In this document: piece by piece, positions 1,914-7,825 of the stretch
Layout of the letters: every line of letters begins with the position of its first letter
How positions within the stretch are numbered: position 1 is the first letter of the stretch
Source of the DNA: a virus
Taxonomy: Duplodnaviria; Heunggongvirae; Uroviricota; Caudoviricetes
Strand: one strand, 5' to 3'
Virus record (IMG/VR): IMGVR_UViG_2681813268_000005
DNA length: 7,825 bases
Position numbers and translations under genes: made by a program
Notes under the pieces: generated by a model
What the model saw: only the letters and a program-made list of their open reading frames with translations
Database searches by the model: none
Told to the model about the DNA's origin: nothing

Positions 1914-2294
1914 ATGACTGAACGCATAGAATTTGTTTTGCCTTACCCGCCAACGGTGAACACTTACTGGCGTCGTCGTGGCAGCACATATTTTGTATCA
2001 AAAGCCGGGGAGCGTTATCGCCGGGCAGTGGCGCTTATTGTTCGCCAGCAGCGGCTGAAATTAAGCCTGTCCGGAAGGTTGGCAATAAAAATTATTGCAG
2101 AACCACCGGATAAGCGCCGCCGTGACCTGGACAATATTCTGAAAGCGCCGCTGGATGCGCTGACGCATGCGGGGTTGCTAATGGACGATGAGCAGTTTGA
2201 TGAAATCAATATCGTTCGTGCTCAGCCAGTATCTGGTGGACGTCTGGGGGTGAAGATTTACCCCATAATGCTTGAAGGGCAGGTCAAAAAATGA
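1914..2294 (+). CDS. rusA: RusA-family Holliday junction resolvase (crossover junction endodeoxyribonuclease)
   Basis: 126 aa; LPYPPTVNTYWRRRG N-terminus and DKRRRDLDN...DDEQ acidic catalytic motifs characteristic of RusA; typical size; ATG immediately follows the upstream stop. Confidence 0.85.
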   Translation: MTERIEFVLPYPPTVNTYWRRRGSTYFVSKAGERYRRAVALIVRQQRLKLSLSGRLAIKIIAEPPDKRRRDLDNILKAPLDALTHAGLLMDDEQFDEINIVRAQPVSGGRLGVKIYPIMLEGQVKK

Positions 2295-3112
2295 AACTGG
2301 AAGATTTACCGAAATACTACTCCCCAAAATCCCCCGGCCTGACTGATGCATCGGCCTCAACGTCGAAAGATGCGCTGAGTATCACTGATGTGATGGCCGC
2401 GCAGGGCATGACACAGAATCGGGCTGAGATGGGGGTTTCTGCGTTCCTTGGGAAAATGGGCATTAGTATGAATGACAGAGAGCGGGCAACAGAATTGCTG
2501 ACAGAATATGCACTCAGTCGGTGTGATCGCGTGGCGGCGTTAAGAAAACTCCCGGCAGAAATAAAACCGGCAGTGATGCGTATTATGGCTTCGTATGCGT
2601 TTGAAGATTATGCCCGTAGCGCGGCGAGCAAAAAACAGTGCCCCTGCTGTCACGGAAAAAAATTTATTGAAAGCGAGGTTTTTACAAACAAGATCCAGTA
2701 TCCGGATGGTAAGCCGCCGGTATGGGCAAAGTGTACGAAAGGTGTGTATCCGTCTTACTGGGAAGAATGGAAAAAAGTCAGGGAGGTGGTAAAAGTTGCC
2801 TGTCCGGAGTGTGGCGGAAAGGGTGAGGTTTCCACCGCCTGTAAGGATTGCCGTGGGCGTGGTGTCGCCATTCATCGTGAAGAGTCGGTAAAACGTGGTA
2901 TGCCTGTTATCAGAGACTGCCAGCGTTGTGGTGGTCGTGGCTGTGAAAGGCTGCCATCAACGGAGGCATTTAATGCCATATGCAAAGTGACGAGTGCTAT
3001 CACGCTTGATACGTGGAAAAAATCAGTGAAACGCTTTTACGATACGTTGGTGGTTCGGTTTGACATTGAAGAGGCATGGGCGGAGCGGCAGTTAAAGAGG
3101 GTAACGCGATAG
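2291..3112 (+). CDS. Late-gene antitermination protein Q (lambda-Q family, 273 aa, expanded zinc-binding region)
   Basis: N-terminus MKLEDLPKYYSPKSPGLTD...ITDVMAAQGM parallels lambda Q (MRLESVAKFHSPKSPMMSD...GTDVMAAMGM, from memory); one degenerate and three perfect CxxCxGxG motifs; ATGA start/stop overlap with rusA; followed directly by a lambda-like PR'/qut/tR' module. Confidence 0.8.
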   Translation: MKLEDLPKYYSPKSPGLTDASASTSKDALSITDVMAAQGMTQNRAEMGVSAFLGKMGISMNDRERATELLTEYALSRCDRVAALRKLPAEIKPAVMRIMASYAFEDYARSAASKKQCPCCHGKKFIESEVFTNKIQYPDGKPPVWAKCTKGVYPSYWEEWKKVREVVKVACPECGGKGEVSTACKDCRGRGVAIHREESVKRGMPVIRDCQRCGGRGCERLPSTEAFNAICKVTSAITLDTWKKSVKRFYDTLVVRFDIEEAWAERQLKRVTR

Positions 3113-3117
3113 TGTTG

Positions 3118-3168
3118 TTGATTTTTCCCGAATCTGTGGTAAATTTGCTCTAACGATGGGCGTTTTAT
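3118..3168 (+). promoter_or_regulatory. Late promoter PR' with Q-utilisation (qut) region and sigma70-dependent pause element
   Basis: TTGATT (3118-3123), 16-nt spacer, extended -10 TGgTAAATT (3137-3145); AACGAT -10-like pause inducer at 3152-3157; the stretch GGTAAATTTGCTCTAACGATGGG closely resembles lambda PR' GGGTAAATTTGACTCAACGATGGG (from memory). Predicted TSS near 3152. Confidence 0.65.
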
Positions 3169-3194
3169 GCCTGACGTTAGAAGATTTTTTACAC

Positions 3195-3216
3195 CCCGCC
3201 GCCTGGCGGGTTTTTT
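3195..3216 (+). terminator. tR'-like rho-independent terminator of the short PR' leader RNA
   Basis: CCCGCC (3195-3200), loop GCCT, GGCGGG (3205-3210), then TTTTTT (3211-3216); about 60 nt downstream of the predicted TSS. Confidence 0.65.
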
Positions 3217-3338
3217 ATGACTGAAATCGCGTCAGTACAGTAAACGCGCTGGTGGCGGTGAATACCTGTCTTTCAGCTTGCTGGCTTTTTCGACAAGAGT
3301 TATTGGTGTGTCACGTTAACCGGAAAAGGGAAAAAGAC

Positions 3339-3536
3339 ATGCTAAAACAGCAGGATATGACAGAAACCGCCAGAGTGGTGTTTAATGAATTAAGCGTTAC
3401 CGAACCGGCGACAGTCGGGGAGATAGCGCAGAATACTTACCTTTCACGCGAACGCTGCCAGTTAATACTGACCCAGCTGGTTATGGCGGGTCTGGCAGAC
3501 TATCAGTTCGGTTGTTACAGACGCCTTCCGCAGTGA
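3339..3536 (+). CDS. 65-aa hypothetical protein, possible small winged-helix/HTH DNA-binding protein
   Basis: ATG 3339 preceded by a purine-rich GGAAAAGGGAAAAAGAC; segment ATVGEIAQNTYLSRERCQLILTQLVMAGLADY has helix-turn-helix character; an identical 65-aa ORF recurs at 4576-4773. The track's longer 3252 start is a GTG extension not conserved in copy 2. Confidence 0.55.
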   Translation: MLKQQDMTETARVVFNELSVTEPATVGEIAQNTYLSRERCQLILTQLVMAGLADYQFGCYRRLPQ

Positions 3537-3550
3537 AGGCTTTTTTATTT
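3523..3550 (+). terminator. Rho-independent terminator overlapping the orf65 stop codon
   Basis: GCCTTC (3523-3528), loop CGCAGT, GAAGGC (3535-3540), then TTTTTTATTT. Confidence 0.55.
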
Positions 3551-3686: not shown

Positions 3687-3803
3687 ATGCTTAATACTGT
3701 AAAAATATCCAGTTGCGAGTTAATCAACGCCGACTGCCTGGAATTTATCCGGTCGTTACCCGAAAATTCTGTTGACCTGATAGTCACGGACCGGCAGAAA
3801 TAA
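3687..3803 (+). pseudogene. N-terminal stub of the DNA methyltransferase gene (38 codons, then out-of-frame stop)
   Basis: 3687-3792 matches the 5' end of the full methyltransferase gene (4924-5029) with one substitution; homology ends at 3792, where the sequence switches to Q-gene sequence; the methyltransferase frame stops at TAA 3801-3803. Confidence 0.7.
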
Positions 3804-4351
3804 AACCGGTAGTGATGCGCATTATGGCTTCGTACGCTTTTGAGGATTATGCCCGCAGCGCAGCGAGTAAAAAGCAGTGCCCTTGTTGCTATGGGGAAAA
3901 ATTTATTGAAAGCGTAGTTTTTACAAACAAGGTCCAGTATCCGGATGGTAAGCCGCCGGTATGGGCAAAGTGTACGAAAGGTGTGTATCCGTCTTACTGG
4001 GAAGAATGGAAAAAAGTCAGGGAGGTGGTAAAAGTTGCCTGTCCGGAGTGTGGCGGAAAGGGTGAGGTTTCCACCGCCTGTAAGGATTGCCGTGGGCGTG
4101 GTGTCGCCATTCATCGTGAAGAGTCGGTAAAACGTGGTATGCCTGTTATCAGAGACTGCCAGCGTTGTGGTGGTCGTGGCTATGAAAGACTACCATCAAC
4201 GGAGGCATTTAATGCTATATGCGAGGTGACAAACCAGATAACACGCGCGTCATGGGAAAAAACAGTTAAGAAATTTTATGATGCGCTGGTGACCCGGTTT
4301 GATATTGAAGAAGCATGGGCTGAGCGGCAGTTAAAAAAGGTAACTAGGTAA
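3793..4351 (+). pseudogene. 3' fragment of a second, divergent Q antiterminator allele (C-terminal ~180 residues, lacks N-terminus)
   Basis: Homologous to 2554-3112 of the full Q gene; central segment (3941-4180 vs 2701-2940) appears nucleotide-identical, flanks diverge (about 17 aa substitutions by eye, including Cys to Tyr in GGRGCERLP to GGRGYERLP). The track ORF 3812-4351 begins at an internal GTG; no native start or RBS. Confidence 0.7.
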
Positions 4352-4356
4352 CAAGG

Positions 4357-4407
4357 TTGATTTTTCCGGAATCTGTGGTAAATTCGTCATAACGATGGGC
4401 GTTTTAT
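4357..4407 (+). promoter_or_regulatory. Second PR'/qut copy (divergent allele)
   Basis: TTGATT (4357-4362), 16-nt spacer, TGgTAAATT (4376-4384), AACGAT pause element 4391-4396; differs from copy 1 at several positions in the initial transcribed region. Confidence 0.6.
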
Positions 4408-4433
4408 GCCTGACGTTAGAAGAGTTTCTACAA

Positions 4434-4455
4434 CCCGCCGCCGAGCGGGTTTTTT
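4434..4455 (+). terminator. Second tR'-like terminator
   Basis: CCCGC (4434-4438), loop CGCCGA, GCGGG (4445-4449), TTTTTT (4450-4455). Confidence 0.6.
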
Positions 4456-4575
4456 ATGACTGAAATCGCGTCAGTACAGTAAACGCGCTGGTGGCGGTGA
4501 ATACCTGTCTTTCAGCTTGCTGGCTTTTTCGACAAGAGTTATTGGTGTGTCACGTTAACCGGAAAAGGAAAAGAC

Positions 4576-4773
4576 ATGCTAAAACAGCAGGATATGACAG
4601 AAACCGCCAGAGTGGTGTTTAATGAATTAAGCGTTACCGAACCGGCGACAGTCGGGGAGATAGCGCAGAATACTTACCTTTCACGCGAACGCTGCCAGTT
4701 AATACTGACCCAGCTGGTTATGGCGGGTCTGGCAGACTATCAGTTCGGTTGTTACAGACGCCTTCCGCAGTGA
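4576..4773 (+). CDS. 65-aa hypothetical protein, second copy (identical protein to 3339-3536)
   Basis: Identical translation; a 2-nt indel just upstream removes the spurious N-terminal extension seen in copy 1, supporting the ATG as the true start. Confidence 0.55.
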   Translation: MLKQQDMTETARVVFNELSVTEPATVGEIAQNTYLSRERCQLILTQLVMAGLADYQFGCYRRLPQ

Positions 4774-4787
4774 AGGCTTTTTTATTT
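4760..4787 (+). terminator. Rho-independent terminator after orf65 copy 2
   Basis: GCCTTC (4760-4765), loop CGCAGT, GAAGGC (4772-4777), T-run. Confidence 0.55.
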
Positions 4788-6022: not shown

Positions 6023-6098
6023 GGCCCTTTAGCTCAGTGGTGAGAGCGAGCGACTCATAATCGCCAGGTCGCTGGTTCAAATCCAGCAAGGGCCACCA
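6023..6098 (+). tRNA. ileZ: tRNA-Ile2 (anticodon CAU, presumably lysidine-modified; reads AUA)
   Basis: Hand-folded cloverleaf: acceptor GGCCCTT/AAGGGCC, D-arm GCTC/GAGC, anticodon loop CTCATAA, T-arm GCTGG-TTCAAAT-CCAGC, encoded CCA; close to E. coli ileX rather than an elongator Met tRNA. Confidence 0.9.
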
Positions 6099-6105
6099 TC
6101 ACATA

Positions 6106-6182
6106 CCGCCATTAGCTCATCAGGAAAGAGCGCCAGCCTTCGAAGCTGGCTGCGCGGGGTTCAAGTCCCCGATGGCGGTCCA
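6106..6182 (+). tRNA. argN: tRNA-Arg (anticodon UCG)
   Basis: Cloverleaf: acceptor CCGCCAT/ATGGCGG, anticodon stem CCAGC/GCTGG, loop CTTCGAA, T-arm CGGGG-TTCAAGT-CCCCG, encoded CCA. Gene name by analogy with the ileZ-argN-argO clusters of lambdoid/Stx phages. Confidence 0.85.
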
Positions 6183-6195
6183 TTATCTGCATCAT

Positions 6196-6272
6196 GCGTT
6201 GTTAGCTCAGCCGGACAGAGCAATTGCCTTCTAAGCAATCGGTCACTGGTTCGAATCCAGTACAACGCGCCA
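6196..6272 (+). tRNA. argO: tRNA-Arg (anticodon UCU; reads rare AGA/AGG)
   Basis: Cloverleaf: acceptor GCGTTGT/ACAACGC, anticodon stem ATTGC/GCAAT, loop CTTCTAA, T-arm ACTGG-TTCGAAT-CCAGT, encoded CCA. Confidence 0.85.
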
Positions 6273-6299
6273 CACTTATTTTCCCTGGCTCGCTTTTGA

Positions 6300-7319
6300 G
6301 AGTTAATCAACGCCGACTGCCTGGAATTTATCCGGTCGTTACCCGAAAATTCTGTTGACCTGATAGTCACGGACCCGCCGTACTTTAAAGTGAAGCCTGA
6401 GGGCTGGGATAACCAGTGGAAGGGCGACGATGATTACCTGAAGTGGCTGGACCAGTGTCTGGCGCAGTTCTGGCGGGTGCTGAAACCTGCCGGAAGTCTT
6501 TACCTGTTCTGTGGTCATCGCCTGGCATCTGATATCGAAATCATGATGCGTGAACGCTTCAGTGTGCTGAACCATATTATCTGGGCGAAGCCGTCCGGAC
6601 GCTGGAACGGATGCAACAAGGAAAGCCTGCGGGCGTATTTCCCCGCCACAGAGCGCATTCTGTTCGCGGAACATTATCAGGGGCCGTATCGTCCGAAAGA
6701 TGCCGGGTATGCGGCGAAGGGCAGTGCACTGAAACAGCATGTGATGGCCCCGCTGATTTCTTACTTTCGTGATGCGCGCGCGGCCCTGGGGATAACGGCA
6801 AAACAGATTGCAGATGCCACAGGAAAGAAAAACATGGTGTCGCACTGGTTCAGTGCCAGTCAGTGGCAGCTACCGAACGAAAGCGATTATCTGAAATTAC
6901 AGTCGCTGTTTGCCCGGGTGGCAGAAGAGAAACATCAGCGCGGTGAACTGGAAAAGCCCCACCACCAGCTGGTGGATACGTATACGTCACTGAACCGGCA
7001 GTATGTGGAGCTGCAGAGTGAATATAAGCATCTGCGGCGGTATTTTGGTGTGACGGCGCAGGTGCCGTACACGGATGTGTGGACACATAAACCGGTGCAG
7101 TTCTATCCCGGGAAACATCCGTGCGAAAAACCGGCAGAAATGCTGCAGCAGATAATCAGCGCAAGCAGTCGTCCGGGAGACCTGGTTGCAGATTTTTTTA
7201 TGGGCTCAGGTTCAACGGTAAAAGCGGCACTGGCGCTCGGGCGTCGTGCGATTGGCGTTGAACTGGAGACCGGACGTTTTGAGCAGACAGTCAGGGAAGT
7301 TCAGGATTTAATCGTTTGA
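6300..7319 (+). pseudogene. Second DNA methyltransferase copy, 5'-truncated (first ~10 codons and start codon missing), divergent 3' half
   Basis: Homology to the full gene begins at 6300 directly after an in-frame TGA (6297-6299); no ATG before the DPPY codons (6372-6383); first canonical start is GTG 6390, downstream of DPPY. The first ~480 nt are nearly identical to the full copy, the remainder diverges (e.g. DLVADFFMGSGST, different C-terminus). Confidence 0.6.
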
Positions 7320-7368: not shown

Positions 7369-7444
7369 GGCCCTTTAGCTCAGTGGTGAGAGCGAGCGAC
7401 TCATAATCGCCAGGTCGCTGGTTCAAATCCAGCAAGGGCCACCA
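7369..7444 (+). tRNA. ileZ: tRNA-Ile2 (anticodon CAU), second copy
   Basis: Appears sequence-identical to 6023-6098. Confidence 0.9.
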
Positions 7445-7451
7445 TCACATA

Positions 7452-7528
7452 CCGCCATTAGCTCATCAGGAAAGAGCGCCAGCCTTCGAAGCTGGTTGCG
7501 CGGGGTTCAAGTCCCCGATGGCGGTCCA
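7452..7528 (+). tRNA. argN: tRNA-Arg (anticodon UCG), second copy
   Basis: Same cloverleaf as 6106-6182, with one substitution in the variable loop (TTGCG vs CTGCG). Confidence 0.85.
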
Positions 7529-7541
7529 TTATCTGCATCAT

Positions 7542-7618
7542 GCGTTGTTAGCTCAGCCGGACAGAGCAATTGCCTTCTAAGCAATCGGTCACTGGTTCGA
7601 ATCCAGTACAACGCGCCA
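7542..7618 (+). tRNA. argO: tRNA-Arg (anticodon UCU), second copy
   Basis: Appears sequence-identical to 6196-6272. Confidence 0.85.
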
Positions 7619-7658: not shown

Positions 7659-7825
7659 AAATGTCTCACAATTCAGGCGGTTGACTGTTGTCTGGTTTGC
7701 GGGGAGTTTGTTAAAAGAAACTGGCATGGTGAATCCCCCTGTGCGGAGGGGCAATCAGCGAGTAGGTATATGGGATAATCGCGGATTCAGGTGCTGGTAC
7801 TGAATTCACCGGGAGGCACCCGGCA

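Follow-up and report, generated by a model that had tools for sequence, protein, structure and literature searches.

A predicted Q-dependent late-gene regulatory cassette with a family-typical 65-nt leader in a QuuQ-like lambdoid prophage

Gene content of the late-regulatory region

The DNA analysed here (hereafter the window) comprises 7,825 nucleotides of the IMG/VR virus record IMGVR_UViG_2681813268_000005 (Caudoviricetes) and corresponds to the late-regulatory region of an E. coli-type lambdoid prophage. Upstream of the gene for a 273-aa Q antiterminator lie a hok/sok module, a DUF968 gene and rusA, and downstream of it an intergenic region, a 65-aa ORF, a DNA methylase gene and three tRNA genes. 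The window ends in a tRNA/STnc100 region, and the lysis and structural genes lie outside it. Coordinates of the features under study are collected in Table 1.

The hok/sok toxin-antitoxin module falls within positions 1-380 and contains a Hok/Gef ORF (65-277), a sok RNA match (1-127) that scores slightly below the gathering score and is cut by the window start, and a weak isrK-like match with a terminator at 286-367. At the other end of the window, the tRNA cluster is duplicated (6023-6272 and 7369-7618), each cluster encoding a tRNA with a CAT anticodon, designated Met by ARAGORN and tRNA-Ile in the annotation of a related genome, together with Arg-TCG and Arg-TCT. In Stx-type phages the same tRNA arrangement is located ahead of the stx or lysis genes. 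Downstream of the second tRNA cluster, positions 7695-7825 strongly match the small RNA STnc100 in Rfam (91 bits, E=3e-19), the match being truncated where the window ends; the position after the first cluster, which is that of the duplication join, has no such match. STnc100 was considered as the 'true' PR' leader and ruled out, as it lies after the tRNAs and is associated with neither a lambda-like -10 nor a pause element, both of which are present at 3118-3160.

The Q protein aligns with lambda Q over its full length (BLASTP, 31% identity, E=7e-39) and is 40% identical to QuuQ (YdfT) of the Qin prophage of K-12. Relative to lambda Q it carries ~66 extra residues in the Cys-rich (zinc-finger) arm, with additional CXXC pairs; the enlarged arm corresponds to window positions 2640-2960 (Q residues ~117-222) and includes a sub-threshold DnaJ CXXCXGXG match. 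In lambda Q, the zinc-ribbon arm contacts the Q-binding element (QBE), and its enlargement here therefore means that the geometry of the site may differ. The Q stop codon lies only 5 nt ahead of the -35 hexamer described below, such that a PF03589 Q gene immediately precedes the regulatory unit.

The first ORF beyond this unit, which encodes 65 aa, lies between Q and the methylase gene in E. coli genomes and is labelled there as a hypothetical protein. A second intrinsic terminator overlaps the end of this ORF and, consequently, a Q-modified polymerase would need to read through at least two terminators before reaching the methylase gene.

Table 1. Positions of the features discussed in the text (window coordinates unless another sequence is named)
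Feature	Position	Strand	Basis or detail
Q antiterminator gene, 273 aa, lambda-Q family	2291-3112	+	Pfam PF03589, E=1e-49
PR' -35 TTGATT, copy 1	3118-3123	+	sequence
16-nt spacer TTTCCCGAATCTGTGG, candidate Q-binding element	3124-3139	+	position and conservation
PR' -10 TAAATT, copy 1	3140-3145	+	sequence; TG at 3137-3138 (-15/-14)
Discriminator (-6 to -1)	3146-3151	+	TGCTCT in copy 1
Predicted start (3152) and predicted sigma70-dependent pause element AACGAT (3152-3157) plus GGG, together AACGATGGG	3152-3160	+	homology
5'-terminal stem-loop of leader	3152-3178	+	MFE fold; +1 to +4 with +24 to +27, inner stem +7 to +12 with +16 to +21
tR' intrinsic terminator (predicted): stem CCCGCC/GGCGGG (3195-3210), loop GCCT, T6 (3211-3216)	3195-3216	+	terminator scan
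First ORF 3' of tR' (65 aa, weak HTH-like match)	3339-3536	+	repeated at 4576-4773
Second intrinsic terminator	3523-3540 (site 3523-3546; repeat copy 4760-4783)	+	terminator scan
5'-truncated Q fragment ahead of copy 2	3791-4351	+	94% identical to 2552-3112 over the compared part
PR'/pause/tR' unit, copy 2	4357-4455	+	-35 TTGATT 4357-4362; -10 TAAATT 4379-4384; AACGAT 4391-4396; stem 4432-4451; T-run to 4455
Tandem repeat pairs	2552-3790/3791-5027 and 4950-6295/6296-7641		repeat joins ~3713-3795 and ~6285-6300
Qin homologue of the unit	L123 6357-6423 = K-12 MG1655 1642356-1642422	-	Term-seq 3' end and predicted start

Promoter, pause element and terminator

The region following Q contains the elements of a lambda-type late promoter. 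The sequence AACGATGGG begins 6 nt past the -10 hexamer and is the same as positions +1 to +9 of the lambda late transcript (788-796 of the lambda locus, L001). Between -10 and +9, the window reads TAAATT-TGCTCT-AACGATGGG, compared with TAAATT-TGACTC-AACGATGGG in lambda and TAAATT-TGACTC-AACGATGG in P22. The window has two matches to the composite pattern TTGAYT-N15-18-TAAATT-N6-AAYGAT, against none in 200 shuffles, and TAAATT-N6-AACGATGGG, allowing up to two mismatches, was found twice against an expectation of 0.03. The second and sixth bases of the pause hexamer (A2 and T6) are kept in every family variant seen. A generic sigma70 promoter scan called neither site in the window, because its threshold is nine of 12 consensus positions and the PR' sites score eight of 12; homology-based patterns were used instead.

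In the lambda family, the QBE is located between the -35 and -10 elements (PMC4914094, PMC9388147). The corresponding spacer, TTTCC(C/G)GAATCTGTGG, is almost invariant among 26 alleles of the unit, and a related CCGAA-N-TG motif recurs together with Q proteins that are 52-61% identical. As the spacer is unlike the lambda QBE, binding of Q to this candidate element is predicted from position and conservation only.

The predicted tR' is the strongest terminator-like site in the window, with a 6-bp stem composed entirely of G+C pairs and a hairpin energy of -11.6 kcal/mol, and it is present in the minimum free energy (MFE) fold. Counting from the predicted start to the end of the U-tract gives a leader of 65 nt (3152-3216), consistent with the original prediction, which had placed the start at ~3152 and the U-tract at 3211-3216 and estimated a transcript of ~60-65 nt. 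In the predicted fold of this leader (-21.9 kcal/mol, z = -2.45), a 5' stem-loop occupies +1 to +27 and is separated from the terminator hairpin by an unpaired linker rich in A and U. The assignment of 3152 as the start, of AACGAT as the pause element and of 3195-3216 as tR' is inferred from these sequence comparisons. The earlier reading of the region as a PR'/sigma70-pause/tR' unit is upheld by the lambda-family Q upstream, by the near-identity to lambda and P22 from -10 to +9, by the retention of this position after Q in related loci and by a Term-seq 3' end in K-12, see below for details.

In copy 1 (3152-3190), the 5' hairpin is followed by the 6-nt spacer AGAAGA and then by U6 (3185-3190). 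A hairpin-spacer-U6 layout has been proposed for hypothetical 'Q-dependent' terminators (PMC9388147). The U6 after the 5' hairpin is disrupted in copy 2 (GUUUCU) and missing in K-12, and the resemblance in copy 1 is therefore probably due to chance.

Tandem duplications and the second copy of the unit

The window contains two tandem repeats, with periods of ~1,238 and ~1,346 nt, and the first of these carries a second copy of the unit. Copy 2 also has a predicted leader of 65 nt and is identical to copy 1 from +1 to +33. The copies differ at -23, -6, -4, -3, -2, +34, +38, +43 and +53/+54; these positions fall in the spacer, the discriminator (four of its six bases, with CGTCAT at 4385-4390 in copy 2 against TGCTCT in copy 1), the linker, the stem flank and the loop. 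The original description of copy 2 as having the same layout with a different loop is thus borne out, but the different initial transcribed sequence attributed to it is not.

In the usual gene order, each element is present once. Here, the sequence passes at the join near 3790 from the methylase gene, after its first ~100 bases, into the middle of Q, and both repeat joins involve this same part of the methylase gene. The Q gene ahead of copy 2 is without its first ~94 codons, so that its ORF and Pfam match represent the C-terminal part only. The joins near 3790 and near 6295 are spanned by none of 5,426 complete E. coli genomes. Since sequence identity between the repeats amounts to 94% over one stretch and to 100% over another, recombination, or mis-assembly, between two related prophages is suggested rather than a simple recent duplication.

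These observations bear on whether copy 2 and its surroundings constitute a working second cassette or are instead a mis-assembly, or a rare rearrangement, of two related prophages, and the chances of the latter are about even. The truncated Q, the two joins that find no counterpart among the complete genomes, the single copy in the canonical order and the identity split, which is as expected for a chimera of two alleles, all favour an artefactual or rare origin. However, both junctions have short microhomology and the copies are in tandem, and real unequal recombination would give the same result. The two copies had been regarded as natural variants of one compact unit; both are real alleles that are seen elsewhere, but the junction that brings copy 2 into the window is the one absent from the complete E. 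coli genomes.

Leader length across the Q family

The short leader was implied in the original prediction to be unusual in comparison with lambda. The lambda leader measures 193-194 nt by sequence, in agreement with the ~194 nt given there, and termination has been reported at +193 (PMC4914094). However, leaders of ~55-75 nt are the norm for the Q family, and that of P22 is annotated as such: the reference record NC_002371.2 marks P late/PR', a qut-like site, the RNA 5' nucleotide and tR', giving a leader of ~59 nt. Similarly, a rho-independent terminator is marked at the equivalent place after Q in the GenBank entries for HK225, ES18 and SfV.

The sequence 3' of the Q stop codon was inspected in 17 named phage records. 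In addition to P22 (59 nt), leaders of 55-71 nt are predicted for 12 named phages, including HK225, mEp237 and YeP3 (55 nt), FSL SP-016 (62 nt), SfV, an Stx2c phage and mEp460_ev081 (65 nt), ES18 (68 nt), SE1 (69 nt), Erwinia phage 49 (70 nt) and Klebsiella phage 6 LV-2017 (71 nt). Prophages were sampled by using a Q alignment to search a set of genomes in which each bacterial species was represented once, which yielded 80 loci across Enterobacterales. A -10 and an AACGAT-like element are present after Q in 66 of these 80 loci; 65 of them have a terminator as well, and their leaders have a median length of 64 nt, 56 being no longer than 80 nt. In a second set, consisting of 80 viral contigs, all 71 leaders measure 53-71 nt.

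Nine longer leaders were called among the prophage loci, three of which are detection errors (L236, with a real leader of ~59 nt, and two false start sites). True long leaders (103-202 nt) are found at L230, L243, L244, L275 and L276; their extra sequence is located directly after the 5' stem, as in lambda, and the insert in L243 and L276 resembles the interior of the lambda 6S RNA. A compact leader of 55-75 nt is therefore the rule in lambda-family Q cassettes and lambda, with 193-194 nt against a median of 64 nt in the 65 prophage loci, is the outlier. This makes the 194-nt 6S RNA of lambda unsuitable as the reference size for a leader. It also means that, with leaders of 55-75 nt, merely ~27 nt lie between the pause site and the terminator hairpin.

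Prevalence, allelic variation and the mosaic joint

A 126-base query spanning the unit finds a match in 2,497 of the 5,426 complete E. coli genomes (~46%), including ST131, O104:H4 and O157:H7 strains. Among 124 instances of the unit, 26 alleles were distinguished; that of copy 1 is the commonest (43 instances) and that of copy 2 occurs four other times. The hexamers, spacer, pause element and transcribed positions +1 to +33 are almost invariant across these alleles, and the discriminator, linker (+34 to +44) and terminator loop vary freely. Within the unit, variation is greatest in the discriminator, for which the 26 alleles show nine different hexamers.

Similarity to other phages switches at the terminator: matches to the Q module end at ~3216-3218, those to the downstream module start at ~3195, and at least six unrelated sequences are found 3' of the T-tract in other loci. 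This identifies tR' (3195-3218) as a mosaic joint. An example is mEp460_ev081, in which the same Q and unit are directly followed by tRNA genes. By these sequence comparisons, the cassette travels with its Q gene, as would be expected for a Q-specific site.

The homologous unit of the K-12 Qin prophage

A homologue of the unit follows quuQ in the Qin prophage of E. coli K-12, and has the terminator AAACCCGC-TGATGA-GCGGGTTTTGTGC. A Term-seq 3' end at 1642356(-), present in two sample sets, coincides exactly with the end of the U-tract of this homologue (PMC7815308, supplementary file 1), which shows that the terminator is used in vivo, although the start site is not proven thereby. The predicted Qin RNA is 63-67 nt in length, or 67 nt with the predicted start at 1642422(-). 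The 3' end is classed as 'orphan' (PMC7815308, supplementary file 1) and its source could in principle be quuQ transcripts that read through, instead of PR'. The Cappable-seq supplements contain no start near 1642422 among the entries listed, no RNA feature is marked at the Qin site in the K-12 reference record, and a literature search on quuQ returned nothing useful. Given that the unit is matched in ~46% of complete E. coli genomes and that K-12 has a 3' end at this position with no annotated RNA, a constitutive prophage RNA may have been overlooked.

Covariation of the 5' stem and possible roles of the leader RNA

The 5' stem of the predicted leader is common to both copies in the window (3152-3178 and 4391-4417), lambda (L001 788-810) and P22 (L132 1402-1424), and recurs across the loci L219-L298. 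The first four to five transcribed bases thereby double as the sigma70 pause element and as one strand of a stem, the complement of which lies 15-25 nt downstream. A MAFFT alignment of the first 32 nt stayed ungapped and left the stem partners unaligned, and alignment-free complement tests were used. Of 63 non-redundant family leaders, 52 contain the reverse complement of +1 to +4 within the interval +13 to +34, compared with 7.2 on average, and 14 at most, when the leader bodies were shuffled; the same test applied to 4-mers starting at +3 to +10 gave background values.

In leaders with pause elements other than AACG, the partner changes to match. The pairs observed are AACA/TGTT (seven leaders), AATGA/TCATT (three) and AACAA/TTGTT (two), with AACGG/CCGTT, ATGA/TCAT and ATAA/TTAT in one leader each. 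Fourteen of the 20 non-AACG leaders contain their own complement, against 3.7 expected with the bodies swapped, and none of 20,000 permutations reached 14, a figure that differs from a true probability as the leaders are related to each other. Several of the exceptions can be paired through G-U (AATG with CGTT, AAGGA with TTCTT), which points to the RNA rather than the DNA level. At the level of sequence, the several distinct pair types argue for repeated compensation. If the 5' stem does act at the RNA level, the sequence of the pause element would be tied to RNA stability or function.

The simplest reading of this pattern is that the 5' stem protects against 5'-end-dependent decay of the leader and late mRNA, a candidate role. 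More broadly, the leader may be selected as an RNA too, with the conserved stem either stabilizing the leader and late mRNA or making the ~65-nt RNA an StxS-like small RNA; this proposal is tentative and falls somewhat short of an even chance.

A related explanation, which would add to rather than replace the regulatory role of the unit, is that the terminated leader is itself a functional RNA (stable, possibly Hfq-binding, trans-acting and StxS-like) or that its 5' stem protects the late mRNA. This is on balance unlikely. The architecture of the leader, in which an A/U-rich linker connects the 5'-terminal stem to a U-tailed terminator, would suit such a role, and the near invariance of +1 to +33 across 26 alleles extends well past the pause element (+1 to +9). 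The family-wide covariation of the stem and the 3' end signal at the K-12 homologue point in the same direction, and StxS and IsrK provide precedents (PMC7547250). However, conservation of +10 to +33 could reflect the DNA-level needs of pausing and escape, and the leader matches no Rfam family: cmscan at E up to 1 returned nothing at copy 1 (3152-3216) and, at copy 2, only a chance-level Trp_leader match (4352-4458; 21.8 bits against a gathering score of 41). Nor is the leader one of the known prophage RNAs PasA-D or HnrS. The Northern probe sequences of the EPEC small RNAs PasA-D are absent from it. HnrS (EcOnc10-12), a 66-nt EHEC prophage RNA defined by perfect complementarity to the final 15 nt of mazF (bioRxiv 10.1101/2025.11.27.690950), was considered for the coincidence in length; no mazF-end complement exists anywhere in the window and the longest k-mer shared with the leaders is 4-6 nt. 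RNAduplex energies for the leader against the hha leader were no better than those of shuffles, and a literature search with the leader sequence returned unrelated primer matches only.

Proposed mechanism

The unit is very probably a Q-dependent late-gene regulatory cassette of a QuuQ-like lambdoid prophage, equivalent to the PR'-qut-tR' regions of lambda and P22. In lambda-type systems, a -10-like element in the initial transcribed region brings about a sigma70-dependent pause at 16-25 nt (PMC4914094), and Q of the lambda family acts as a nozzle on the RNA exit channel, where it blocks the hairpins of terminators (PMC9388147). By analogy, sigma70 RNA polymerase would start at ~3152, after which sigma70 would re-bind the -10-like AACGAT(GGG) of the non-template strand (+1 to +9) and hold the complex at ~+16/+17. 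Without Q, the polymerase would resume and terminate at the hairpin and U-tract (+44 to +65), releasing an RNA of ~65 nt. When present, Q would bind the promoter spacer and load onto the paused complex, together with NusA if it resembles lambda Q in this respect. Once loaded, it would block hairpin formation and so permit readthrough of tR' and later terminators, and transcription would then reach orf65, the methylase gene, the tRNAs and the late genes. The precise start, the pause, the contact of Q with the spacer and the Q-dependent readthrough are inferred steps of this scheme.

The remaining alternative, in which the hairpin and T-tract simply end the early-right/Q transcript, the promoter-like sequence is fortuitous and no separate short RNA is made, would accommodate the position of the terminator ~100 nt past the Q stop codon, the failure of the generic scan to call a promoter and the 'orphan' status of the K-12 3' end, which has no linked 5' end, but is highly improbable given the near base-for-base match to lambda and P22 PR' from -10 to +9, which is not expected by chance, the -10 and AACGAT-like element kept after Q in 66 of 80 diverse loci, and the invariance across alleles of hexamers and pause element within variable flanks. 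The unit is thus an ordinary Q/PR'/tR' cassette with a leader of family-typical length, and two leads emerge from it, namely the covariation of the 5' stem and the predicted K-12 RNA that lacks annotation.

Comparison with known systems

The PR'-qut-tR' region of lambda shares with the window the Q family, the -10 hexamer, the pause element AACGATGGG and the 5' stem (in lambda, AACGA at +1 to +5 with TCGTT at +19 to +23), and its mechanism is the same as that proposed here (PMC4914094, PMC9388147). The two promoters differ in detail, TTGACT-17-TAAATT-TGACTC-AACGATGGG in lambda and TTGATT-16-TAAATT-TGCTCT-AACGATGGG in the window. In lambda, the 5' stem is also separated from the terminator by an extra segment of ~130 nt, which is missing from the window and from most family members and is shared by a small number of loci (L243, L276). 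The 65-nt leader is not a sequence homologue of the lambda 6S RNA, as similarity stops after the 5' stem and the segment from +24 to ~+140 is absent.

P22 likewise has a lambda-family Q, a TAAATT -10, a 6-nt discriminator, AACGATGG at +1, a 5' stem (AACGA/TCGTT) and a terminator ~59 nt from the start, and the A that is homologous to position 3152 is marked in its record as the 5' nucleotide of the late RNA. Its Q protein differs, gp23 being 207 aa in length and near-identical in type to lambda Q, in contrast to the ~66 extra zinc-finger-arm residues found here. The P22 spacer (candidate QBE), 5'-stem loop, linker and terminator sequences are unrelated to those of the window.

The quuQ (ydfT) region of K-12 Qin encodes a Q that is 40% identical; beyond it come TAAAAT-TTTTTC-AACGATGGGC, a 5' stem and, separated from this stem by an A-rich linker, a terminator. 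Its spacer, linker and terminator sequences differ from those of the window, and Qin is a defective prophage with cold-shock genes downstream.

Short late-promoter RNAs have been noted in phages 21, phi80, 82 and P22 (PMC7547250). StxS (EcOnc15), from Stx1 and Stx2a phages, is similar to the predicted leader in being a constitutive PR' transcript that ends at tR' just past Q, and acts as an Hfq-dependent small RNA (PMC7547250). However, StxS belongs to a cassette with a 144-aa Q of the Q933 type, and its 258-nt leader is cut by RNase E to 74 nt (PMC7547250), whereas the leader described here would measure ~65 nt as made. StxS is therefore an analogue of the window leader and not a relative.
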